Shown here: piece by piece, positions 6,375 through 19,532 of the stretch
Numbering within the stretch: the stretch's first letter is position 1
How the letters are laid out: each line of letters begins with the position of its first letter
Source: Candidatus Hermodarchaeota archaeon
GTDB taxonomy: Archaea; Asgardarchaeota; Thorarchaeia; Thorarchaeales; Thorarchaeaceae
Length of the DNA: 19,532 bases
Reading direction: 5' to 3'
NCBI GenBank assembly: GCA_048885865.1
Contig: JBHLLF010000047.1
Span: forward strand, 1 to 19,532
The notes under the pieces: model-generated
Databases searched by the model: none
What the model was told of the DNA's origin: nothing
What the model saw: the letters and a program-made list of their open reading frames with translations, nothing else
Translations under genes and position numbers: made by a program

Positions 6375-7064
6375 GTGAGCAAGGGACCGCGCTATGTTGA
6401 GGATGGAATAGCCATTCTTTCTCTACATGATGTGAGCCCTGCCTTTGAGGATGATGTTGTCGCGACATACGACATGTTGATTGACCTCGGAATTTCAGAT
6501 TTCACTCTGCTCGTGACTCCCATGTACGCACTCAAGAAGTCCAATAGTCTTGAGAACAGTCCTCTCTTCTGCGAGTTTCTCGCATCTTTAGATTTGGAAA
6601 TATCCCTTCATGGATATAGCCATTTCACAAAATCTGGCTCGATGGATGAGTTCCAGAAAATGGATAGAGACCGTGTCCTTCCCAGGATGAAATCTGGAAA
6701 GGCATTGATTTCTGACCATATCGGGAAGAACCCGGTAGGATTTGTGCCCCCATTATGGAAAGCACCCCAGCGGGTTGCTGGCGCGGCGCAAGATGCAAGG
6801 ATGAGCTATTGTGCAATAGGCAACAGCATTCATCGTTTTTCTGACTCTTCGGTCTTGACCACGGCTGACTTGCTTGTCAGTCAAGGTATGAAATCGACAT
6901 CGTTCACCAATCAATTGCTGGAGATAGAATTGGGTGGCTCGGTTCAAGTAGGTGTTCACCCTCGTGATCATCACGAGAATAGCGTTTTTGATATGCTTGC
7001 CGACATGAAGGATCGGCTGGACTATCAATTTGTGGGATACCACTCCTATCTCTTCAAGGCTTAG
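6375..7064 (+). CDS. DUF2334 / polysaccharide deacetylase (CE4, NodB-homology) family protein
   Basis: LSLHDVSP (motif 1), EISLHGYSH (metal-binding H-x-x-x-H), GFVPPLW (motif 3) and C-terminal VGVHPRD. No signal peptide. 229 aa. Confidence 0.8.
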   Translation: MSKGPRYVEDGIAILSLHDVSPAFEDDVVATYDMLIDLGISDFTLLVTPMYALKKSNSLENSPLFCEFLASLDLEISLHGYSHFTKSGSMDEFQKMDRDRVLPRMKSGKALISDHIGKNPVGFVPPLWKAPQRVAGAAQDARMSYCAIGNSIHRFSDSSVLTTADLLVSQGMKSTSFTNQLLEIELGGSVQVGVHPRDHHENSVFDMLADMKDRLDYQFVGYHSYLFKA

Positions 7065-7273
7065 GGGCACATCTAGTAAAACCATCCGCGAATCTCTTTG
7101 TAGTAAACTCATTAGCATTATTCGAGTTGTCGAAAAAGCGTCAAGGGCGATTGTCTGAAGAACCATATTGGCACGCCATTGTTTATTATGTACGAGTGTA
7201 ATCCATCAACCTGCTCAGCACCACCGGCTGCACGCTAGTGACCATGTCGGAGTCATGAGAGAGGATTGGCAAT

Positions 7274-7279
7274 GGAGGT
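7274..7279 (+). promoter_or_regulatory. Shine-Dalgarno GGAGGT of the giant membrane-protein gene
   Basis: GGAGGT lies 8 nt before in-frame TTG 7288 and 2 nt before in-frame ATG 7282. A TATA-like TTTATTAT lies at 7182-7189. Confidence 0.5.
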
Positions 7280-7281
7280 CT

Positions 7282-10200
7282 ATGCCTTTGAGGAAAGGTA
7301 GTTTCTTAGCTATATTCTTAGTCTTGCTGTTTGTAGCACCCGCAAATAATGGACATTCACCGTTGGTCAATCCTGCATCAACCTACAGTCCATATGAGAA
7401 CGATGGGGACACGCCGTTTAGCTACTTGGCTGGAGATAGCATGAGCGGCTCTGGAGATCCTCTATCTACCTATGTATCTGGGATTCTTGAGAATAGCACC
7501 GCTGCACAAATTGACTCATCAACATCAGCTACAAGTTCTTTGTCAGTTCCGAACGGCTATACAGGCACCAGTTTGGATGTTGATGTCGATTCGTTATCAA
7601 TGACGGTGACGGATAATCTTCGCAATCCCTCCTTCACCACTTGGCATGATGAACGATGGCATGTAGGAAATAGTATCAACTTCTACGATGATATTATTGA
7701 TGTGCCTGATTCCTGGACTTTGGTGAAGTCCGTCAATTACGATGATGCCCATCCTCTGCATGGTGATTGGGAACTCAACGACTATTCCGGTGGTTATGGT
7801 GGAAGTCGCGCATGGCGATTTGAGGCAACAATTGGTAGTAGCGATCCACTCACCCCTGATGATGCAATTTACTTGAGTCAGTTTCTGCACGCTCCATGGC
7901 GCGACCTCTATGAGATTCGAATCAGTTTCTATTACTACGTTCTTTCCACCTCTGATATGTACGACCAAGTTCATCTATTCTTCAAGCTAGGTGATTTAGC
8001 CGAAGAGAAATTCAATGTCTTCGAGTTTGGTGACACAACCGACACATGGATTCGCGAAACTGTGACATACACATCAGCTGACCTCTCATCCGTGACGGTC
8101 CCTGATTCTTTGCTTTTCAATATTGGACTTGCTACCGATGTTTCTGGCCCGTTGGGTACATACCGAGAAGCCTTCGTATACATAGATGAAGTTGAGATAG
8201 AAATGGATGTGCGCCCATATCCTGAGCAAATAGGTCTAAGTGCTAACAATACAGCTGTGGTTGGGTCCATTGCTGGAAACTTCTCTACATTCGTTCCTGA
8301 TAACGACGGGCGTGACTGCTGGGACTACTCTACGCAAGGTATCGATTTGGATGGGTACAATAATGACGGTCGACCTGAGTTTGGTCTTTGGGGGACCTTC
8401 TGGAATACCTCAAGTCCATACGAGCTCGGGCTGCAGTTCCCCTTGGATATTCCCAAGGGTGCTGTTATCGAGAATGCATATGTCGAGATTCAATCTGCAG
8501 GTGGATCGGGAGTTGTTCAGGGAAGAGTCCACCTATCTAGTGAAATGGCCGGGGGTGGAGCTATCGAGTCATTTACTTACTATGACCTAATTGGAGGATA
8601 CCATCTGGAGGACACCTATACATGGTTGGCTGCCAGTTACGATTGGCAATTGTCTGCATGGACTAATGGAGTCCGATACGCTACTCCTGATATCGCGCCA
8701 CTGCTACAGAATGTGGTTTCTTCAGCTGATTGGTCAAGTGGCCAATATGTCGCTTTCATGGTCAGCTACATGTGGTCAACTTACTATCAATATTATAACA
8801 ACATCAGAGGATCTATCTATGATACCAACGACGCAGATGACAATGCTCGGCTTTATGTGTCATATCGAGTACCTTTGGCAGAAGATGTTGTATTAGTGGA
8901 CCGAGAGGAAGCTCGTCGGACTCTTAAGTACAAGAAGGACATAACTGTTGACTACACGAAGGTTGCTGCTGACCTCACTGATTTTCCTCTATTGATTGAT
9001 ATCATCGATACAGACCTTCATACTGATGTCTTTCCGGGTGGAGATGACATTGCTTTCATGGTAGATGGTCAATTTGTGGAGCATGAGATAGAGTTCTTTG
9101 ACCAGAATTATAGTCCAACAGAGGCACATCTCGTAGCGTGGGTAAAAGTTCCATTCCTATCAAGTTCAACAGACACAATCATCACTATGTTGTACGGAGG
9201 ATCTGATGCTCGGAGTCTAGAAACAAAAGGTGTCTTTGCTGATTACGAGATAGTCCATCACATGAATGAAGCGCCAAATGGAACGCTAGTTGATAGCTCG
9301 GGGAATTTGCATTATGGTTATTCAATTGGAGGCATGACTGATACACAAAGCGTAGCAGGAGCTATAGGAAGTTCAATCAACTTCGACGGATCAGATGATG
9401 CAATCACGGTTGGTCAAATCGACACCGATGAGTGGCCTTCTTTCACCGTTACTGGATGGGTAAGCCAAGACGTGGTTGGGGATGATCGTATCTTTTCCAA
9501 AGCGCCAAACACAGACGGAACTCAAGCTATAATTCATTTTGCAATTAATGGCGCCACCGCGTTCAGAGTTCGTATGAACACTGATGGCACGGGAGGTGGT
9601 GCCTCAGGTTCAGTGGACGCAACTACATTGACGACTCCAGGCAACTGGGTCTATTTGGCGTGGTCTTGGAGTGCAGCAACTGCGTCAATGCGTCTTTATG
9701 TAAACGGAACATTTGACAGGTCTGTGGCCAGGGATGGAGATACGGTATTGGATTCAATCCTTCCATTCGTGATCGGTAACTGGCAGACAGGTCCATACGA
9801 CAACCGTTTCTTCGACGGGAAGATAGACGAGATTCGGATGACACAGATGGTGTTGTCTGATGGCTGGATCGAAACGGAGTTCAATAACCAACTTGATCCA
9901 TCCACCTTCTATTCTGTGGGCTCTGAACAATCCAACGCGGCAACTCCTGATGTGACTTATGCTTCAGTTCAATTCACAACAGGCTCTTCAATCCCAGTAA
10001 ATCTCGGATTTACACTCGCCCTAGACTTCGAGGGTTTTGGAAAATCTCTTGATGAGAACTTCAATGAGGGAACTACCTTCCATGCTGTTAATGGTAGTAG
10101 CACTGTTTCATGGATAGCCAAGGTTTTGGTGTCCCCCCTCCCCAATGTAGCCAAGATGGAGGTCCAAATAAGCTATCCAATGACCGAGTGGCGGCCCACA

Positions 10201-13200
10201 TCTGTCACCAATCCCATAGGCGTATCAAAGAGCTATCCAGCTGATTGGACCTACACAGGAGGAGTACTGACTCTTCTGCCTGCCGCAGTGGATGTATATG
10301 GAGTCTGGACCTTGGAGTTTGAGGGGCTCAACTATCTGAGTGATTTACAGCTTGGAGTATTTGGCGGATCACTATCTTCGACCGCAGAATTCCAGACAAA
10401 CCATACAATGCAATTTGAAGGAACTTCCCTATGGCATGCCGGGTCGGCAACCCAGCTCTATCTAACGGATCCAACGGGATCTGCCTGGAGTACACCCATC
10501 ACTCATCCCACGGCTGGAAGTGACACCCATGAGATTCCGTCATTTCAATACAGTAAAGCAATCACCATTGATAATACGAAAGTATACGACGATGTTGTCA
10601 ACTTCCCATTCCTTCTAGATTTCACAGATGCTAATGTGGATGATAGGGCTCAAGCTGATGGTGACGACATTCTATTTGTTCAGAATGGGGTTGTCATTCC
10701 CCACGATCTTGTGGAATATACCGTAGCAGCAGGGTCTGCTCACATTGTAGCTTGGGTTCGAGGCAACTTGTCCAATTTCGTGGACACAGACATCACCATG
10801 TACTACGGTAACTCAATTGTTGGACCACAGGAGCAGCCATCAGCCGTGTGGGGTGAAGAGTATGTTGGTGTCTACCATCTGGAGGAATCTCCCACTGGTG
10901 CAAAAGGAGAGATACTTGACTCTACCACCTACGGAAACGATGGAACAACAGAAGGATCCATGAACTCAGCAGACCTAGTTGATGCAATGTTTGGCAAGGG
11001 CCTTGATTTCGACGAGATCGATGACTTGATACGATTAAAGGACGACGCGAGTCTGGACACTGTCGCAACTGCAGGAACTATCCAACTGTGGATTTGGTGG
11101 GCCAATGCAGCTGATGGTGAATGGCAGAATATCATGGATACGAGCAATCGATTCAATGGCAATCCGAATGATGGATTCGAATGGGCGCAACAAAATGACG
11201 GTGATCACTTCTTCTACCCGTGGGCCGGAGTTGGTTCAGATTATAATCTGGGAACGAATCCCTTCACTAATCAGCAATGGCACCATCTAGCAGTTACCCT
11301 CAATTACGCGACAAAGGAAGTGAAGATGTACGTAGATGGGAGTGCCATCACTCTTACAATTCAGCAGGCTCCAGTATTCTGGACTCAAATCGCAAATCCT
11401 GGAGATTGGTTATGGGGTGGTGACCCAGACCAGCCACTGCGATATTTCGACGGAATGTTTGATGAAATCAGAATTGCTAATGTGGAACGCTCAGCAGGTT
11501 GGCTATTCACTGAGTTTGTTAATCAGGACAATCCAACAGCCTTCTACAACAATATCGGGTCAGAGCAACCGCGTCAGATATACAACTCTACATTCGTGAA
11601 GGCTCTCGATAACACAGCTGCCGCAGGAGTGTGGACCGCAACTGCCTTCTTCAACGATTCTGGAAGCGCAGTCGATTATAGCGTTGGAATCTACGAACGA
11701 GAGTTCATTGTTAAGCATGATACATCATTGACATTGCAGGAACCAAGTGATGCAGTTGGAGATCGCCTTACTGTTACCACAGCAGGCGAGTGGATTTATG
11801 TCGAATATGAGCTGACTGACGATATCACGGCAGCAGGTGTGCCTGATGCGACAGTTACCTTGAATTGGACCGTGTCTGGTGCTCCGACTCAGATCACATT
11901 GGATGATTTTGGTACTGGCACCTATGGCAAGATGTTGAACACAAACAACCTAAGGACAGCTCAGCGATGGCGTGTCAATCTTCAATCCACCCATCAGTTC
12001 TACAATGATGCAACCGAGTACTTCAATGTGGATCTATACCATCAAACGAATCTCAATTACGGCGATGTGACAACAACTCCAGCTGATGTTGACTTCACCG
12101 CAACACTGACGTTTACAGACATATATGATGGTTCTCCAATTGTTGGTGCGGAAATAACATTGGATGGTAGTCCTGTGACCCACATTGACTTGGGTCAAGG
12201 GAAGTATAGCGTGTCCATTCCTACTGGGGCTCTCAGTCTAGGTCAACATTGGTACATCTTCAATGCGACGCTGTCGGGGAGCTATCTTGAGATGGCCAGT
12301 GTCAACATCACCTTCACCCTAAGGCAGCACTTCACCTCTGTCAATATCCAAGGCGACTTGGTTCAGCCATATGGTTTCAATACACAGTTCGATGTGATAC
12401 TCCTTGACCTTGACACAGGAGGTACTGTCCCACTTAGTGCTGTGAGTCAATTCTCATTTGACCCTGCATCCTATGGCATCCAAACTAGACCGGGGACTAG
12501 CTATAGCATCACTTTGACGACAAACACTTGGGATGTAGGTACAGAATCCGTGACTCTCACAATTACTATGGCTAACATAAAGTACGCAACTCCTCAGGCC
12601 TATTCCTTTGATATTACAATAAGACTACGCCATACTTCAGTTTCAGTCTCCGGATCATTTGTTCAGCCTTATGGCAATCTGACGCCATTGAGTGTGTACC
12701 TCTGGGACCATGATGCATTGGAAGTTGTTCCGATAGGCGAAGTTAGTACATTGATGTTCATGTGGCCGCCTAGTGATTCTGAAACTTTCAATAGTCCAAG
12801 CAGCTATGACGTTGTTCTTGACTCCTCTAACTGGGATGTTGGAAAAACCACTGTGACTCTTGTGGTCAATGTAGTGACAAGCGGTAAATATCTCAATCCT
12901 ACTAATTTTGTGTTTAACATTGAGATACGTAGCAGGTCTACAGTACTCTATCACGATCCATCTGACTTGGTGTTTGCCGAAGGAAGTGACTTCTGGATTG
13001 ATCTCCGTGTGAATGTAAGTGAGCCTGGGACTAGCTTCGGATCGCCTGTCACTGGACTCACTCAAGGAGAGTTTTCAATTACTGGTGGATATCTATTCAC
13101 TATTGATACAACAGAGAATGGAATTGGACGATACAGACTGACTATTCCATACTCTGAATTAGGACCAGGGATCTTCACAATAACTATCTACCTGTTTCCA

Positions 13201-16200
13201 TCGGATGCTAGTCATGGTGATGCACAAGTCACTGTTCGTTTCTTCTATGCAGAGGTCCAGACATCTCTTACATCACCCACTCATCCTCAGGTGACAACTC
13301 CTTTTGCCACTGATGTTCAGATAACTCTAAACTATACCGATATCGAGAGCGGACTCGGCATACCGGGTGCAACAATCACCAATACTAGTATCAACATCTA
13401 CGGGCTTGTTGACCAGGGCACAGGTATCTACACGCTATGGCTTGATGTTACTGGTCTTGCGGAAGGCACTCATGCATTCAGCCTAGGGGCTGTTAAAAAT
13501 GGATATGAGGCGCGCTCTCTCTCGTTCACAGTCCGAATTCGAATTGCATATACTTATGCGATTCCTTCTATTGGCGCTCTTGACATACCGATTGGCAACT
13601 CGCCTGTCTTCTACGTCGATTATTGGGATATTGACCACGATGTGCCGGTTGACAACTCCTCTGCACCATACACGCGAGTTTTGTCTACCTGGCACAACTT
13701 CTCTGTTGTCTACATCCCTGCTCAGGAGAGATATCAAATAACCTTCAAGACTTCAGATTCAGACTCTCTTCAAAGCAATACTGTATGCACCTTCAACTTC
13801 TCTAGAGGATCCAACTACCAATTTGGCATATTCACAATCACTTTTTCAATAAGAACTCACAACACTGATTTCCGATTAACAAGCGCAATTCAGCCAACAA
13901 GTAATGTGGGGACAATTAACATCTCTGTCTACTATGGGGATTTAGACAATAACTTCGGCGTTGATTCAGTTAATATTGCATTCAGTGTGGAAAATGTCAG
14001 CGGCACAGTAGTTTCAAGCAGCCTATCCTTGGGGGGAGGCTTCTACGTAATTCAGGTCGCAGCTGATCAATTCGGCCTAGGCGTTCAGACATTCACTGTC
14101 TATGCAGATTGGATGGGACCCTTTGCGAAGTACCAGAACAAGAACTTTGCCACAACTGCAAGTATAGTGGGACTAGAATCTGCTTATACGCTATATGAAG
14201 CATCAGCGCCCACTCCATATCTAGAAATCATGAGCTACAAGTTCTTCTATAGTGAGCTCAGTGGAATAGGAATAGACAATTTAACCGGAAATGTGTTCGT
14301 CTATGTTTCTTTCCAAGGCGAATCTGTAGACCTCAGTCAGGTGGCCATTTTCGATTATTCTCTAACTCAACCTGGCAACTACTCCATCCAGTTCAACACC
14401 TCAATCTTCGATAGAACTGGCATCATTAACATGAACGTCTTTGTCAATTGGTCAAAAGGTGTTGCACCATTCTATCAGAACCGAACTGACATTGTCACTC
14501 TGCGTGTTCTACCCCGTGATACATTGGTATCAGTCGTGCCTCCATCTCCGACGAGCTACCTGGAGATGGCCTCCTTTGCCTTTAACTACGAGGACATTGC
14601 AGGAGTAACTAGCAGTCTGATCTATGATTCCCCGTCACTCACAATATCGTCTAATGTGACATTCTCAGTATCAGAAACCGATGGGACATTTACTTTCGAG
14701 TTCAACACATCACAGTTTGGAGCCCTCGGAAAAAGGGCCCTGCTATTGGATGTGATTTGGGCTGGCTCGCCATTCTATTTGAACAGAACCGGTATCATAG
14801 TATACATCACTGTTGTTGAGCGACAGACATTTCTTGAGTATCTTGCTCCTGCACCAACTCAATATAATGACAATGTTCAGTTCAATGTCACATGGACTGA
14901 CATTACAGGTGGAGCGTCTGATGGCATTATTGGAGCGACGCTTGCGCTATTTCAGGGTGCGACTCCAATAAATCCCATTTACTACAGTTGGTTGGATATT
15001 GGCGGAGGCATCTATTCTGTTGACCTAAGCGCTTCGTATAATCCTCCAGGCCAATACAGTCTAAGGGTCGAGATGTCAATAGGACTCTTCTACATTTCAG
15101 ACTCAACTGTCAATCGTCAATTCACAATACGGGAACGCATCACTCTACTATCTGCAGAACCAGTCAGAGACGTGCCCTATAGCTCAGATGTCGAAATCAT
15201 CCTATATTACCAAGACCTATTTACAACTAGCTCAATATCCAATGTTACCGGCGCTGTCACCTTTGAGATTCTTAATCCTGGCATTTGGAATTTCGTGATT
15301 AGCTATAACTCTGTAAATCAATACTATCAGCTAAGTGTCACTACGTCCGACCATCCTGAGTTGCTCATTGGAGTAACATACACATTCAATCTTAGAATGA
15401 CCTACGACTCCATCGCACCGTACTATGCCAGTGATGGACTTTTCGTAGACTACGAGATACGCATAAGGGAATCTACCATTGAGCTGGACACAGCTCCAAC
15501 TTCCACTGCTTATGATAATGACGCAAGCTTTGCTGTATACTATGAGGATGCAGATGCACTAAGCGGAATAGCAGGCGCAGACATATCGGTATATCTCAAT
15601 GGTACTCAGCTAATTGAGAATACTGAGTACACCATGAGTGAGGGCTCCGCAGGGCTCTATCTGTTCGATGTGGACACAGGCGCATTGGCAGGTCTTGGCC
15701 TTAATACTCTGGTAGTTTATGCGAATTGGCTGGGCACTCCTTATCATGAGAATCTGACAATCAGTGTTGGGATAGTTGTACGTGAGCGATCCACAATAAT
15801 TGAGTTTACTCAACCACCAGCCAGAACCGAATACCTTGATGATGTGACCTTCAAATTTGTCTACAAGGACCTAGACACTGGCACTGCAGGCGGTACTCCT
15901 GTTCTTGGTCTCACAAAGACCGAAGTCCGACTCTATTATGAGAACGGGACAGAGATACCCTCTCCATATTTCTCATTGACCCCTGATGGCTCTGCGTATG
16001 AGATAGTCGTCAGTTCAGCAATTCTCAGTGCAGTTCTTGATAATGCCTACTCTCTGAGAGTGGATGTCGATTGGGACATCGGAACTGCACCATACTATGA
16101 GGATGATTCCACAACGCTCAGAGTCACAGTAGTGGGCCGGTCGATGTTTGTCGATCCTGCAACAATCGAAACCACTCCAATCACAGGTCCAGGCGATACA

Positions 16201-19200
16201 GAAACCATGTTTGTGAACTTCACAGTCAGTGATGCCAGCAATGGCAATCCCATTTCAGGAGCCATCATAGTTTTCACTTGCGTAGAACAGCCCATCTTCA
16301 TATATGCTCTAGACGAGCCCCAAGCGGGACAGTACTCAATTGAAGTCGATACTGCAAGTCTGACTGTTGTATATGGTCCCAACACATATCATTTTGAACT
16401 ACGGGTTCAATGGAATCCATCAATTTCTCCATACTACAGCAATCGGTCCGCAATTGTATTGACAGGAATCGTCGACCGTGTGCTGACGAATCTCCAAGCG
16501 GGAGCCCCGAATCCCGCAGCACCGTACTTTGGTCAAAATGTGTCGTTAATTGTCACCTACACTGATGAGGATCATTCCTCCATAGGTATTAACTTTGCAA
16601 CCATAAGTGTGGTCTATGATAAAACTGGCATTCCAGTGCTAGGTCTAGATGTAGTTGGCATTGGCTCTGGAGAATATAACATAACTTTCAACACTGGAGA
16701 TGTTTCCAGTCCTGGTTCCTATGTTCTTAGAATAACTGCTATGAAGACGGGTTATACATCTCTTGTGGTCCGACCTACTATAACAGTGCAGGAAATTCCT
16801 ACAAGGCTTGATTTGCATGAAATTTCATATCCAGTCTATTGGAGGAATACGACCAAAATTGGGGTTAACTTCACTGATACCTTCAACAATCTCCCCATAT
16901 TTGGTGCAAACGTGTATTGGAGCTATAAGAACTTCACAAACCAGCCATTTACAGACATGGGAACAGGCGAATACTATGCTGATATTGATGCAAACATTGA
17001 TAATATCGGTACATGGGTTCTGACAATCCGAGCTACCCAGTCTACCTATCAAATAGCGACTGCAACAATAACTCTCGTTGTTCTACCTCTGCCTAGTGAC
17101 CTGCAAATCAGAGAACCAACTGAAGCTGTTAAGGATGTACCACGTGGTGATCCTGTAAACATTACGGTCTACTTACATGATGTATTCAACAATCTGGCAA
17201 TAGAGAAAGAATATGTGGACAGGGTCTACATCTTATTCCAAGGCTCCCAGTACGAAATGTATGAACATAGTAATGGCTCTGCAGGCTATTACCAAGGGTT
17301 TATTCCTGGAGCGATAACAGGAGTGCTTACCCCTCGTGCATATGATGTGCGAGTGACAGCTCAATTCAGAAACTATGAGCTCGCAGTCAGTCAGTTTGGC
17401 ATTTACATTCAACAGACAACAACTGTGGTTCAGATTTGGGATCACGATTTGTCGGAATTCACAGATGGGACCATCTTTATTGAAGCTGTGTATCTTGAGG
17501 AAGTGAATTTCACGCTACAGGTGACAGCTCCCTCGCTAGCTTTCAGAATAAATGAGTCATTTGTGAACTGGTTTGAATCCAGATGGAGCATAAACTATAC
17601 TTTCACCTTCAAAGGCAATGGCATCTTCGAATTGATGTTCAACACCTCAGAGGCATCATATGGTACTTGGGGTCTTACATTTACCTCAATTCCAGATGAC
17701 AAATTCTTTGCTGAAGATGCTCTTCTTGTGACATTAGTTATCAAGAAGATACCTACTGAGGTCCTCCCACCCATCATGACAGAACGGATTTGGGGGTGGA
17801 AGGGTAATCTTAGTTTCTACTACAACGACACTCACTACAATCGAGGAATTAGGAATGCAACGGTCACCTATGATTACTATACAATACAAGGCCTCCAAGG
17901 AATAGACCTTGGCAATGGATCTTATCTGATATATATCGACACTACGATTCTTATCCCAAGTCCGAATCTGAGATATCCTATTCTAATCGTATTTGATCAT
18001 GAAGGCGACTATGAAAGTAGAACAATTGGAGTGCAACTTACTGTGCTAGAGGTCCCGACTGAGATACTAACATCCATTACTGGAGCGACAGGTGGCTTTA
18101 TTCAGGAGGTTCGCGGCGTTAGATATTATGAACTCCAAGTGGCATTCGGTGGAGATATTGACTTCGAGTTCTTCTATAATGATACCGATAATTCAGATGG
18201 ATATGTTGGTGGTCTAGCTGGCTCAAGCACAAACCTGACTGAACTCTATGGGGACAATATGGATGCTGTGGTACCATTCTTGACAGATATCGGAGATGGG
18301 AGATATACTTACGCTTTCAGCACCATGAGTATATGGCTGTTCAATCGGATTGGTGGAATTCCTGGAGCGAGTCCAGACAATCCTTACACCTTCCGAATCT
18401 CGCTTTGGATTGCCAACAGAACATATAGGACAGTGGAGATTAAGATAAGGATTATTGAAGTACCTACTTCCATTGATGTCGTGGACTTCAATTTTGACAT
18501 TGGATATGGTTCCGAGGGCCATATTACTCTTCAATATTGGGATGAATGGAATAATCTACCCATAACAGGCGCAAACTTGACTGCTAACACGCTTAATCGC
18601 TTTGTCGAGATTACAGCAACTGCGGAAGATTCTACGCCTGGACAATATACAATTCGTTTCATTGGTAGCGCAGGATTGCTGGACATATTCAGGCAGGAGC
18701 AAGAAGCAACCATTGTCTTTGATATATACAAGGATAACCATCAACTCCGAAGCGAAATTGACTTGGATATTAGCCTTATAGCCCACGTTTCACTCACGCC
18801 AATGGAAGCAGCGATTAGTACCTATGGATTCTACCTCATACCCTTGAGTATAGTAATGATGATGCTTCTTGGAGCCTACGTGAGGGTGTGGAGTGTACCA
18901 AAGAGAATCCGGCAGATAAATGGCCAGATTAAAGCAATACGCAAGGGCAAGATACCCAAGCCAATTTCTGATGTTCTGAGCAGGCAGGAGCTAATTGCCG
19001 GCCTCTTCAATGACACCTACCTCGAGCTGAAATTGAAAAGAACTCCTTCACAAATGCCTGAGGAGTCTATCGATATAGCTGTGCCCGAGATGGGTGAGCT
19101 GCTAATTCAGTTGGCAATCCTCACCAACCTAAGTGCTGAAGAGCTGGAGGAATTCCAGGCTGACATTTCCAAGATGCGGATGAGTGAACAGGCCGCCTTT

Positions 19201-19532
19201 GTCAGAGAAGTCATCATGCAAGAGGCAGTTCGCGCCGCTCGAAGAGAAGGCAAGACACCCGAAGAGATCATTGAGCAGGTAAGAATGGAAGCTCTCCGCA
19301 GGGTTGGTGGCGAAGAAGGTGTTATCGATGCGGGTCTGGCTGTCAAAGAAATGGAGGAAGAGTCCGTGCGAATAGTGGCTGAAGAGAAGCCTAAGAAGGA
19401 GGTCGGACCTGATGTTGCTCCCCCAGAGGAGGAACCGTCTGCTCCTGGCGACAAGCTCAGTCAATTTGAGCTAGAGGAACTTCGAAAGGAGCTAGAATCT
19501 CGAGGCGTGCCTCCACATGAGATCGACACCAT
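7282..19532 (+). CDS. Giant (>=4,080 aa) single-pass cell-surface protein with 2x DUF2341+LamG, about 22 Ig-like repeats, a TM helix and a cytoplasmic domain; 3'-truncated by the window
   Basis: Frame +1 is open from the stop at 7156-7158 to the window end: I saw no stop in the parts I translated, and the track lists no terminated frame-1 ORF there. Signal peptide MPLRKGSFLAIFLVLLFVAPA; DUF2341 and LamG motifs; Ig-like repeats; TM YGFYLIPLSIVMMMLLGAYV followed by basic RVWSVPKRIRQ. Start may be ATG 7282 or TTG 7288 (ATG 7255 is also in frame). Confidence 0.92.
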   Translation, partial: MPLRKGSFLAIFLVLLFVAPANNGHSPLVNPASTYSPYENDGDTPFSYLAGDSMSGSGDPLSTYVSGILENSTAAQIDSSTSATSSLSVPNGYTGTSLDVDVDSLSMTVTDNLRNPSFTTWHDERWHVGNSINFYDDIIDVPDSWTLVKSVNYDDAHPLHGDWELNDYSGGYGGSRAWRFEATIGSSDPLTPDDAIYLSQFLHAPWRDLYEIRISFYYYVLSTSDMYDQVHLFFKLGDLAEEKFNVFEFGDTTDTWIRETVTYTSADLSSVTVPDSLLFNIGLATDVSGPLGTYREAFVYIDEVEIEMDVRPYPEQIGLSANNTAVVGSIAGNFSTFVPDNDGRDCWDYSTQGIDLDGYNNDGRPEFGLWGTFWNTSSPYELGLQFPLDIPKGAVIENAYVEIQSAGGSGVVQGRVHLSSEMAGGGAIESFTYYDLIGGYHLEDTYTWLAASYDWQLSAWTNGVRYATPDIAPLLQNVVSSADWSSGQYVAFMVSYMWSTYYQYYNNIRGSIYDTNDADDNARLYVSYRVPLAEDVVLVDREEARRTLKYKKDITVDYTKVAADLTDFPLLIDIIDTDLHTDVFPGGDDIAFMVDGQFVEHEIEFFDQNYSPTEAHLVAWVKVPFLSSSTDTIITMLYGGSDARSLETKGVFADYEIVHHMNEAPNGTLVDSSGNLHYGYSIGGMTDTQSVAGAIGSSINFDGSDDAITVGQIDTDEWPSFTVTGWVSQDVVGDDRIFSKAPNTDGTQAIIHFAINGATAFRVRMNTDGTGGGASGSVDATTLTTPGNWVYLAWSWSAATASMRLYVNGTFDRSVARDGDTVLDSILPFVIGNWQTGPYDNRFFDGKIDEIRMTQMVLSDGWIETEFNNQLDPSTFYSVGSEQSNAATPDVTYASVQFTTGSSIPVNLGFTLALDFEGFGKSLDENFNEGTTFHAVNGSSTVSWIAKVLVSPLPNVAKMEVQISYPMTEWRPTSVTNPIGVSKSYPADWTYTGGVLTLLPAAVDVYGVWTLEFEGLNYLSDLQLGVFGGSLSSTAEFQTNHTMQFEGTSLWHAGSATQLYLTDPTGSAWSTPITHPTAGSDTHEIPSFQYSKAITIDNTKVYDDVVNFPFLLDFTDANVDDRAQADGDDILFVQNGVVIPHDLVEYTVAAGSAHIVAWVRGNLSNFVDTDITMYYGNSIVGPQEQPSAVWGEEYVGVYHLEESPTGAKGEILDSTTYGNDGTTEGSMNSADLVDAMFGKGLDFDEIDDLIRLKDDASLDTVATAGTIQLWIWWANAADGEWQNIMDTSNRFNGNPNDGFEWAQQNDGDHFFYPWAGVGSDYNLGTNPFTNQQWHHLAVTLNYATKEVKMYVDGSAITLTIQQAPVFWTQIANPGDWLWGGDPDQPLRYFDGMFDEIRIANVERSAGWLFTEFVNQDNPTAFYNNIGSEQPRQIYNSTFVKALDNTAAAGVWTATAFFNDSGSAVDYSVGIYEREFIVKHDTSLTLQEPSDAVGDRLTVTTAGEWIYVEYELTDDITAAGVPDATVTLNWTVSGAPTQITLDDFGTGTYGKMLNTNNLRTAQRWRVNLQSTHQFYNDATEYFNVDLYHQTNLNYGDVTTTPADVDFTATLTFTDIYDGSPIVGAEITLDGSPVTHIDLGQGKYSVSIPTGALSLGQHWYIFNATLSGSYLEMASVNITFTLRQHFTSVNIQGDLVQPYGFNTQFDVILLDLDTGGTVPLSAVSQFSFDPASYGIQTRPGTSYSITLTTNTWDVGTESVTLTITMANIKYATPQAYSFDITIRLRHTSVSVSGSFVQPYGNLTPLSVYLWDHDALEVVPIGEVSTLMFMWPPSDSETFNSPSSYDVVLDSSNWDVGKTTVTLVVNVVTSGKYLNPTNFVFNIEIRSRSTVLYHDPSDLVFAEGSDFWIDLRVNVSEPGTSFGSPVTGLTQGEFSITGGYLFTIDTTENGIGRYRLTIPYSELGPGIFTITIYLFPSDASHGDAQVTVRFFYAEVQTSLTSPTHPQVTTPFATDVQITLNYTDIESGLGIPGATITNTSINIYGLVDQGTGIYTLWLDVTGLAEGTHAFSLGAVKNGYEARSLSFTVRIRIAYTYAIPSIGALDIPIGNSPVFYVDYWDIDHDVPVDNSSAPYTRVLSTWHNFSVVYIPAQERYQITFKTSDSDSLQSNTVCTFNFSRGSNYQFGIFTITFSIRTHNTDFRLTSAIQPTSNVGTINISVYYGDLDNNFGVDSVNIAFSVENVSGTVVSSSLSLGGGFYVIQVAADQFGLGVQTFTVYADWMGPFAKYQNKNFATTASIVGLESAYTLYEASAPTPYLEIMSYKFFYSELSGIGIDNLTGNVFVYVSFQGESVDLSQVAIFDYSLTQPGNYSIQFNTSIFDRTGIINMNVFVNWSKGVAPFYQNRTDIVTLRVLPRDTLVSVVPPSPTSYLEMASFAFNYEDIAGVTSSLIYDSPSLTISSNVTFSVSETDGTFTFEFNTSQFGALGKRALLLDVIWAGSPFYLNRTGIIVYITVVERQTFLEYLAPAPTQYNDNVQFNVTWTDITGGASDGIIGATLALFQGATPINPIYYSWLDIGGGIYSVDLSASYNPPGQYSLRVEMSIGLFYISDSTVNRQFTIRERITLLSAEPVRDVPYSSDVEIILYYQDLFTTSSISNVTGAVTFEILNPGIWNFVISYNSVNQYYQLSVTTSDHPELLIGVTYTFNLRMTYDSIAPYYASDGLFVDYEIRIRESTIELDTAPTSTAYDNDASFAVYYEDADALSGIAGADISVYLNGTQLIENTEYTMSEGSAGLYLFDVDTGALAGLGLNTLVVYANWLGTPYHENLTISVGIVVRERSTIIEFTQPPARTEYLDDVTFKFVYKDLDTGTAGGTPVLGLTKTEVRLYYENGTEIPSPYFSLTPDGSAYEIVVSSAILSAVLDNAYSLRVDVDWDIGTAPYYEDDSTTLRVTVVGRSMFVDPATIETTPITGPGDTETMFVNFTVSDASNGNPISGAIIVFTCVEQPIFIYALDEPQAGQYSIEVDTASLTVVYGPNTYHFELRVQWNPSISPYYSNRSAIVLTGIVDRVLTNLQAGAPNPAAPYFGQNVSLIVTYTDEDHSSIGINFATISVVYDKTGIPVLGLDVVGIGSGEYNITFNTGDVSSPGSYVLRITAMKTGYTSLVVRPTITVQEIPTRLDLHEISYPVYWRNTTKIGVNFTDTFNNLPIFGANVYWSYKNFTNQPFTDMGTGEYYADIDANIDNIGTWVLTIRATQSTYQIATATITLVVLPLPSDLQIREPTEAVKDVPRGDPVNITVYLHDVFNNLAIEKEYVDRVYILFQGSQYEMYEHSNGSAGYYQGFIPGAITGVLTPRAYDVRVTAQFRNYELAVSQFGIYIQQTTTVVQIWDHDLSEFTDGTIFIEAVYLEEVNFTLQVTAPSLAFRINESFVNWFESRWSINYTFTFKGNGIFELMFNTSEASYGTWGLTFTSIPDDKFFAEDALLVTLVIKKIPTEVLPPIMTERIWGWKGNLSFYYNDTHYNRGIRNATVTYDYYTIQGLQGIDLGNGSYLIYIDTTILIPSPNLRYPILIVFDHEGDYESRTIGVQLTVLEVPTEILTSITGATGGFIQEVRGVRYYELQVAFGGDIDFEFFYNDTDNSDGYVGGLAGSSTNLTELYGDNMDAVVPFLTDIGDGRYTYAFSTMSIWLFNRIGGIPGASPDNPYTFRISLWIANRTYRTVEIKIRIIEVPTSIDVVDFNFDIGYGSEGHITLQYWDEWNNLPITGANLTANTLNRFVEITATAEDSTPGQYTIRFIGSAGLLDIFRQEQEATIVFDIYKDNHQLRSEIDLDISLIAHVSLTPMEAAISTYGFYLIPLSIVMMMLLGAYVRVWSVPKRIRQINGQIKAIRKGKIPKPISDVLSRQELIAGLFNDTYLELKLKRTPSQMPEESIDIAVPEMGELLIQLAILTNLSAEELEEFQADISKMRMSEQAAFVREVIMQEAVRAARREGKTPEEIIEQVRMEALRRVGGEEGVIDAGLAVKEMEEESVRIVAEEKPKKEVGPDVAPPEEEPSAPGDKLSQFELEELRKELESRGVPPHEIDT
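8926..9930 (+). other. DUF2341 + LamG (concanavalin A-like) cassette 1 within the giant CDS
   Basis: KYKKDITVDYTKV..DLTDFPLLID...GDDIAF...HEIEFF...AWVKVPFLSS..DTIITMLYG (DUF2341), then HHMNE..DSSGN..INFDGSDD..FTVTGWV..WVYLAWSW..LYVNG..FDGKIDEIR..WIETEFNNQ (LamG). Confidence 0.85.
10546..11565 (+). other. DUF2341 + LamG cassette 2 within the giant CDS
   Basis: FQYSKAITIDNTKV..NFPFLLD...DGDDILF...AWVR..DITMYYGN, then GVYHLEE..LDFD..TIQLWI..WHHLAVT..MYVDG..FDGMFDEIRIANVERSAGWLFTEFVNQ. Confidence 0.85.
11713..18795 (+). repeat. About 22 tandem, diverged Ig-like beta-sandwich repeats (about 95-135 aa each) within the giant CDS
   Basis: Recurring protein pattern R/P-x-T-x-L...PY...F-x-V-x-Y-x-D-x-D...I-x-GA...G-x-G-x-Y...T..L..G. 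Repeat starts counted by eye near 11713, 12040, 12322, 12622, 12928, 13252, 13540, 13852, 14170, 14515, 14821, 15136, 15466, 15787, 16138, 16477, 16795, 17089, 17413, 17749, 18052 and 18460. Confidence 0.75.
18823..18882 (+). other. Transmembrane helix of the giant protein
   Basis: 20 uncharged residues (YGFYLIPLSIVMMMLLGAYV) followed by R/K-rich sequence, consistent with the positive-inside rule. Confidence 0.85.

Follow-up and report, generated by a model that had tools for sequence, protein, structure and literature searches.

Overall architecture of the giant protein

The window analysed here (the whole stretch of 19,532 nucleotides) is one entire contig, JBHLLF010000047.1 (C47), of a Thorarchaeota genome of 3.58 Mb (GCA_048885865.1, referred to as G000). 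It contains the gene of a giant surface protein, whose reading frame is uninterrupted from position 7168 to the final base of the contig. The subject of this study is the C-terminal tail of this protein, i.e. the 216 residues on the contig that follow its transmembrane (TM) helix (18883–19530). In this giant surface protein of a Thorarchaeota archaeon, which crosses the membrane once, the tail is the cytoplasmic part. It is folded, conserved, non-enzymatic and matches no described family. The two features that define the overall build are:

7282–19530, + strand: giant type-I surface protein (open reading frame (ORF) 7168–19530, 4,121 codons, open at the 3' end)
18823–18882, + strand: single C-terminal transmembrane helix, YGFYLIPLSIVMMMLLGAYV, a hydrophobic 20-mer read from the translation

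The start at 7282 gives a signal-peptide-like N-terminus (MPLRKGSFLAIFLVLLFVA...), and the full length of the protein is estimated at about 4,146 residues. A Pfam scan located Laminin_G_3 in two stretches of the ectodomain (E-value 3e-28) and a single match to DUF2341 (4e-6). There are 58 N-x-S/T sequons in the ectodomain versus 2 on the inner side, and the protein is probably glycosylated. The first 30 residues after the TM helix carry a net charge of +8, in agreement with the positive-inside rule. Taken together, the signal-peptide-like start, the sequons, the single TM helix and the basic segment behind it indicate an N-out/C-in topology, which places the tail in the cytoplasm.

Modular structure of the tail

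The tail is built from four parts, whose order is constant across an alignment of nine paralogs and across 73 complete examples from a sequence library: a juxtamembrane (JM) motif, a helical core, an acidic, proline-rich linker and an end module. In the window these parts and the motifs within them are located as follows:

18883–19047, + strand: JM motif of about 55 residues, RVxSVPKxhRxh..Mh K.h.KGKhPK....V..R..hh..hFN (16-row alignment A3)
19048–19311, + strand: helical core of about 90 residues (model helices at tail residues 70–81, 85–95, 100–122 and 126–142)
19129–19155, + strand: LSAEELEEF, first copy of the L[ST]xxE helix-start motif, at the start of core helix 85–95 (paired by HHalign with the start of the end module)
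from 19249, + strand: GKTPEEI, read in the frame of the giant
19312–19449, + strand: acidic, proline-rich flexible linker, tail residues 144–189 (pLDDT below 50; acidic/Pro string of the original prediction at 19381–19440)
19450–19530, + strand: end module, incomplete at the contig end, with helix 1 (LSQFELEELRKELESRG) and the start of helix 2 (VPPHEIDT), identified by a hidden Markov model (HMM) match
19456–19482, + strand: LSQFELEEL, second LSxxELEE copy, in the end module

All sequence strings quoted in the original prediction, which was made from the DNA letters alone, were found at their positions and in the frame of the giant ORF. Its description of a helical segment agrees with an AlphaFold2 model of the window tail built on the 9-row alignment. 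In this model the block-mean pLDDT (predicted local distance difference test) lies mostly between 83 and 93 over tail residues 1–140, with dips to 72 (residues 1–10) and 66 (residues 61–70). Helices comprise residues 7–20, 34–45, 70–81, 85–95, 100–122 and 126–142, and resume at residue 194. Their hydrophobic moments are unremarkable (0.12–0.42).

The JM motif contributes the first two helices (7–20 and 34–45; block-mean pLDDT 72–89 over residues 1–60). Pro6, Pro25 and Arg34 are invariant or almost so in the 16-row alignment, which covers several Asgard families. The window carries the complete pattern, a TM helix followed by R-h-x-S-h-P-K-x-h-R ... G-K-x-P-K ... R-x-x-h-h, and matches the A3 profile with an E-value of 3e-23.

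The remaining four helices up to residue 142 form the core (block-mean pLDDT 87–93 for residues 71–140, 66 for 61–70). It contains the motif VPEhxxLLxQLxILTxL(S/T)xxELxxFxxDhxKM(K/R)xSEQxxFxxEVIxQEA and is recognized by the family core HMM with 209 bits (E-value 4e-62, positions 1–145). The best-conserved stretch is SKM[KR]xSEQAAFxxEVIxQEA. Residues Leu77, Met98, Ser101, Phe106, Glu109 to Ile111, Gln113 and Ala119 are invariant across the nine paralogs. The linker that follows consists of 26% Glu and 13% Pro and has a net charge of -9. Across the family the gap between core and end module, as measured by HMM envelopes, ranges from an overlap in short tails of the type found on contig C22 of the same genome up to 59 residues.

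The second helical module of the original prediction exists, but only its first helix and the start of the second are on the contig: GVPPHEIDT ends at position 19530, and an HMM of complete end modules matches the window at module positions 1–25 only. For the paralog nearest to the window protein (L002:2050-2208), a full end module was modelled alone, with a 34-row alignment. It forms a three-helix bundle (helices 6–18, 23–35 and 38–52; pLDDT 89.5) with a unit size of about 47 residues. End modules occur once or four times per tail (twice in two partial clusters), and in members with a complete core the last copy ends 0–7 residues from the C-terminus.

Contig end and tandem gene pair

An ortholog from the same genus (genome G230, 4,162 residues) is 84% identical to the window protein in the ectodomain and 89% in the tail. 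Its tail (L029) is complete and runs 25 residues beyond the point at which the window stops, ending in ...LPRELVEELVKSLGDRKK. It contains one complete end module followed by GDRKK and the stop codon. Since the ortholog extends that far past the contig end, the window tail is about 25 residues short of complete.

A second giant follows in G230, with an open frame that starts 55 nucleotides downstream of the stop codon of the first. Contig C2 of the window's genome starts with the same residues as the N-terminus of this second giant (..RLSAMRKGAIISLSL..), as far as the two were compared. The end of C47 and the start of C2 thus adjoin, and the window protein is the first of a tandem pair of about 4.1k and 3.1k residues, of which the second is encoded at G000:C2:1-9423. 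In at least nine of the sampled genomes (G230, G170, G103, G087, G140, G266, G260, G254 and G046), a single contig carries two tail matches at a distance of about 9.6 kb.

Paralogs and conservation of the tail

Searches with tblastn and HMMs revealed nine tails in the genome, counting that of the window: one more on C2, four on C8, two on C22 and a fragment on C69. With the exception of a 201-residue fragment at a contig end, they are located at the C-terminus of ORFs of 2,561–6,560 residues. The C8 giants (3,996, 6,560, 3,991 and 5,505 residues) are arranged head to tail at G000:C8:25093-87479 on the minus strand and all carry the tail, as do both C22 giants (2,561 and 2,592 residues; G000:C22:27401-42837, minus strand). 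The two C8 giants of about 3,990 residues have four end modules, versus one in the G230 ortholog of the window protein. HMM searches of the genome yielded no further carriers of the core or the end module beyond the nine giants; a 694-residue ORF on C12 was rejected as a candidate (E-value 0.27).

We compared the window protein part by part with two cross-genus orthologs and obtained the following identities:

JM motif plus core: 71–78%
End module: 63–67%
Linker: 30–33% (30–35% with the C2 paralog included)
Ectodomain: 44–45%

The tail is therefore more conserved than the variable giant ectodomains to which it is always fused, an outcome that the original prediction had named as support. A tail that is shared by nine paralogs with very different ectodomains, and that is better conserved than these ectodomains, most likely has one common partner. 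From these sequence comparisons we favour, with moderate confidence, a function as a modular docking or anchoring tail, which would bind a common cytoplasmic or membrane-proximal partner.

The common partner might also be another tail. In this case the tails of the giants would bind one another under the membrane, either homo- or heterotypically (for instance within the tandem 4.1k/3.1k pair), and the ectodomain rods would be ordered into a canopy or an S-layer-like array. The presence of the same core in all nine paralogs, the tandem layout shared by the window gene and the C2 giant and recurring in the nine or more genomes named above, and the frequent oligomerization of helical bundles would fit such a lateral self-assembly. 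A possible precedent is PySLP, the 292-kDa colossal S-layer protein of Pyrobaculum arsenaticum with homologs in Thermoproteota, which is a hexameric, TM-anchored Ig rod (bioRxiv 10.64898/2026.08.21.746120). Its short, highly basic C-terminal tail directly follows the TM helix and ends in lysine (bioRxiv 10.64898/2026.08.21.746120). Like the window giant, PySLP is very large and has a signal peptide, a long stalk, a single C-terminal TM helix and a basic cytoplasmic stretch behind it, and it is better conserved in its membrane-facing parts than on the outer surface. Head and tail differ: the head of the window giant contains Laminin_G_3 and DUF2341, unlike that of PySLP, and instead of a short tail there are at least 216 residues past the TM helix (about 241 in the ortholog), among them two folded modules and a leash. 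Moreover, lattices of the PySLP type form through the ectodomains, for which a short basic tail is enough, and a flexible leash with a single or fourfold terminal plug resembles a recruitment device more than a lattice contact. We therefore regard self-assembly as rather unlikely compared with docking to a separate partner.

Distribution of the tail and of the JM motif

A HMMER scan with the tail profile over 1.84 billion (1.84e9) protein cluster representatives resulted in 137 matching clusters. The long matches are giants of 2,000–5,500 residues that carry the tail C-terminally; in all of these, as in the eight paralogs, it directly follows the single C-terminal TM helix. The short matches are for the most part contig fragments. 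Across 300 sampled genomes of the phylum, strong hits to the whole-tail profile were obtained in the family of the host (f1, 72 of 76 genomes) and in f2 (1/1). Outside these two families only weak, partial matches were observed, covering profile positions 1–114/141 in f12 and 1–50/61 in f3, f9 and f21. The named records that carry the tail are metagenome-assembled genomes (MAGs) of Candidatus Thorarchaeota and Promethearchaeota. The tail is lineage-specific, and the statement of the original prediction that giant proteins of Thorarchaeia have similar tails proved correct. None of the outcomes that would have spoken against that prediction was observed: the tail is neither unconserved nor predicted as disordered among orthologs, and it matches no housekeeping domain.

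The JM motif is distributed more widely than the rest of the tail. The JM-only profile (A3) matches 177 of 301 genomes of the phylum and 16 of 30 families, among them f1, f3, f7, f9, f12 and f21; no match was obtained in f5 (0/28), f22 (0/21) and f14 (0/11). Among the matches are records named Thor-, Hod- and Odinarchaeota, including Candidatus Odinarchaeum yellowstonii. Judging from these profile matches, the JM motif is an older, phylum-wide unit common to surface proteins of many Asgard families. The helical core and the end module are specific to the Thorarchaeota family; the core is strong only in that family and its order, and a second family (f12) shows weak matches to the JM motif plus core.

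A further carrier of the JM motif in the same genome is a mini-protein encoded at G000:C52:1953-2492 on the plus strand (locus L046:1953-2492; a 180-codon open frame, deposited as 175 residues). In it, a short N-terminal stub is followed by a TM helix, the JM motif of the giants and a small helical C-terminus (..LAERGIANDIASAISAGL..); there is no ectodomain. Proteins of this type are conserved as a family of 161–180 residues in Thorarchaeota MAGs. The neighbours of the C52 gene are housekeeping genes. The mini-protein could act as a 'tail-only' competitor or regulator for the partner of the giants.

The occurrence of the JM motif right after the TM helix on unrelated surface proteins across the phylum, and on this mini-protein of 175–180 residues, would also be consistent with a generic membrane-proximal signal. 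The tail would then be read by the machinery for secretion, insertion, glycosylation or turnover of very long type-I proteins and would serve in retention, quality control or membrane-domain targeting, with no role in the mature protein. Such signals seldom require a folded core of about 90 residues and a three-helix module conserved at 63–78%, and the family-specific core and end module would be left unexplained. We consider a pure biogenesis or sorting signal improbable, and a docking function, to which the core and the end module would contribute, remains the reading that we prefer.

A second family of tails was observed in f12 (loci L036, L037, L041 and L044; genomes G096 and G073; proteins P0133, P0135, P0137 and P0138). 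These tails contain the JM motif (RhFSIPWhVRKMRKM..), two or three copies of an 'LSxxEK...SxxER' helix hairpin and a Lys-rich C-terminus.

The LSxxELEE repeat

The original prediction had drawn attention to the resemblance between LSAEELEEF and LSQFELEEL and had described the segment as containing an internal repeat. A search of all genome ORFs of 150 residues or more gave two occurrences of the exact pattern L[ST]xxELEE, a count that fits the two copies in the window tail. We aligned a profile of 132 end-module copies with a profile of 73 core sequences using HHalign. Module positions 1–21 pair with LSAEELEEFQADISKMRMSEQ of the core at a score of 25.8 and a probability of 54%. For 150 column-shuffled profiles the mean score was 11.5 (standard deviation 2.4) with a maximum of 22.2, so that none of them reached 25.8, and the reversed profile scored 13. 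The resemblance is therefore beyond chance, and it is conserved across the family. It spans a single helix: what is shared is a helix start of 12–21 residues, but no duplicated domain is found in the window protein. The second pair of strings that had been suggested as a repeat element, GKTPEEI and GVPPHEI, is absent from the HHalign profile alignment.

Each of the tail's helices tends to begin with h-[S/T/P]-x-x-E, the pattern of a capping box combined with a hydrophobic staple. The distant f12 tails visibly contain two or three copies of a unit of roughly the form hxxLSxxEKxxhhxxhKxhSxxERxxhh, and the end module aligns weakly with the C-terminal f12 unit over 45 columns (P = 0.0013, probability 18%). 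Repetition of a short helix or helix-hairpin unit probably gave rise to the tail; in the window protein only the helix-start signature of this unit is left. From the profile comparison, a duplication of such a helix unit is a plausible origin of the LSxxELEE resemblance.

Three small proteins among the library matches (P0132, P0136 and P0139) have weak similarity to the end module (E-values 8e-6 to 7e-4) and hold two to four tandem units of the type ..L..xG(h)xxxE(I/V)xxhhxxhK..; P0136 has in addition an N-terminal, zinc-ribbon-like CxxC..CxxC. According to these matches the helix unit may be present outside the giants as well. Fusions of the end module to N-termini resembling UPP synthase, an OPT membrane protein and MoaB (P0113, P0124 and P0129) were set aside. 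They are probably chimeric assemblies, as the contigs are only 705–1,975 bp long.

Comparison with known families and folds

The original prediction had called the domain unrecognised and without a catalytic motif, which is in line with the results of our database searches. No significant Pfam or NCBIfam match was found for the window tail, for eight complete paralog tails, for 34 end modules or for the f12 and other distant tails (the best for f12 being BET, E-value 9e-4, below threshold). Sub-threshold matches to SAP (0.0033), RecX_HTH1, Bap31_C and B12-binding_2 were discarded as noise. The SAP domain (PF02037) scored 17.5 bits against a gathering threshold of 23.9 bits (E-value 0.0033) and covered profile positions 2–20 only. 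It matched two of the 34 end modules (best E-value 0.001), and the model of the module has three helices. Scanned singly, the 34 end modules gave no consistent family; the most frequent was Bap31_Bap29_C (7/34, best E-value 5e-4), and no UBA or CUE family is among the 25 most frequent Pfam matches listed.

A profile search of PDB sequences with the end-module alignment gave no significant match, the best hit being a de novo designed protein (E-value 0.011). Foldseek found no match for the model of the window tail and only E-values of 1.3 or higher for that of the end module. With VIA-align the best hit of the core was a designed bundle (Z = 6.9, 55 aligned residues) and that of the end module the X-domain of a paramyxovirus P protein (hPIV3, 8kdb_B; Z = 5.9, root-mean-square deviation 2.3, 51 aligned residues), both inside the helical-bundle background stated for the tool. 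The B domain of staphylococcal protein A (Z = 5.3) is a further three-helix bundle of this kind. The CUE-like domain of N4BP1 (8t48; Z = 4.6, Foldseek E-value 4.3) compares no better than unrelated bundles. Sequence identities in the listed rows are 4–22%; the end module shares no common diagnostic motifs with these bundles, and no family stands out. The ESM Atlas was uninformative (top score 0.80), and Pfam NPR2 was silent in the genome, as were the controls.

Full-text literature searches brought up no description of the tail. The tail is new and undescribed, while the giant that carries it is an already known kind of protein. One or more N-terminal copies of Laminin_G_3 constitute the commonest architecture of archaeal huge proteins, whose function is not understood, according to a survey entitled 'The neglected giants' (PMC11573180). 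The ectodomain of the window protein fits this architecture, and the passages of the survey on archaea and Laminin_G_3 describe no TM anchor or cytoplasmic tail. Its cut-off is 5,000 residues: the window protein, at about 4,146 residues, is below this value, and the C8 paralogs of 5,505 and 6,560 residues are above it.

Gene neighbourhoods

Immediately upstream of the giant gene lies a DUF2334 or polysaccharide-deacetylase-like gene (6375–7064, + strand), a possible glycan-processing neighbour. A Rad51-family protein of 277 residues (G000:C2:9446-10276, minus strand; L012:47-877) is encoded convergently to the end of the C2 giant. Besides these two, the neighbours at the window, C2, C8 and C22 loci comprise hydantoinase A/B, GNAT, ThiI, GcvH, an AAA ATPase, an aminotransferase, a DUF4332/HHH protein, LPG synthase and unknowns. 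Two antisense ORFs of 111–115 residues overlap the tail (19107–19454 and 19129–19464, both on the minus strand). Nothing supports either of them, and the Glu-rich (GAR) coding strand probably generates both as by-products.

The neighbourhoods also bear on the idea of an outside-in signalling receptor, in which a lectin-like head would bind a ligand, the TM helix would relay the signal and the tail would recruit a longin-type adaptor together with a small GTPase. The receptor-like topology and the phylum-wide JM motif would suit this idea. At the paralog loci inspected, though, neither an adaptor nor a GTPase gene was found as a neighbour, and one TM helix beneath a 3,800-residue ectodomain of repeated modules would be a poor conformational transmitter. 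A signalling receptor of this kind is very unlikely in our view.

Proposed role of the tail

Based on the modular structure and the conservation pattern, we propose the following arrangement for a docking or anchoring tail. The JM motif and the core would be located at the membrane. The end module on its acidic leash would act as a plug that reaches out, with a higher avidity in the paralogs with four modules. The joint task of the JM motif, the core and the plug would be to anchor the surface giants, to sort them or to position them. As for the helix unit that makes up the tail, the recurrent L-[S/T]-x-x-E-h helix starts would be its N-terminal signature; two to three copies of the unit are seen in the f12 relatives.

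Several points weigh against this proposal. The predicted template modelling score (pTM) of the whole tail model is 0.41, so that the AlphaFold2 model does not fix the placement of the modules relative to one another. A three-helix bundle and a helical core would also be compatible with self-association or lipid binding, and the conservation of the tail could equally reflect a role in biogenesis or sorting. The repeat signal is short (21 columns at the probability of 54% given above), and the LSxxELEE similarity could be a convergent helix start of the capping-box and hydrophobic-staple type. Finally, no partner gene is common to the window, C2, C8 and C22 neighbourhoods. Their genes are heterogeneous and mostly housekeeping, and gene context therefore yields no partner candidate.

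The original prediction had suggested that the tail couples the surface protein to an intracellular partner. Integrin beta and the classical cadherins are type-I adhesion receptors with adaptor-binding tails. By analogy, they resemble the giants in having a large modular ectodomain, one TM helix and a conserved, non-enzymatic tail that is found on paralogs with different ectodomains. In contrast to these receptors, with which they share no sequence or fold similarity, the giants have a tail of folded helical modules and not of short linear motifs. The tail might be a prokaryotic counterpart of adhesion-receptor tails, in which the JM motif would recruit a eukaryote-like adaptor and a small-GTPase switch, and the core and the plug would tie the rods to a cytoskeletal or membrane-remodelling partner. 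We put this forward tentatively and regard it as doubtful.

The present analysis separates a phylum-wide motif from family-specific modules, provides conservation figures for each part of the tail and includes a test of the LSxxE repeat. As the tail is small, soluble and modular, the JM peptide, the core and the end module can each be expressed and used as bait. Archaeal surface proteins normally stop a few residues past their anchor. In this family of giant paralogs a tail of about 240 residues, two folded domains included, has been retained and is better conserved than the exposed part of the protein, a pattern that implies an intracellular partner dedicated to it. For Asgard archaea, a link of this kind between surface and cytoplasm bears on how the cell surface makes contact with eukaryote-like cytoplasmic machinery. 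If the likeness to adhesion receptors holds true, the tail would constitute a physical connection from the surface to the cytoplasm in the closest archaeal relatives of eukaryotes.

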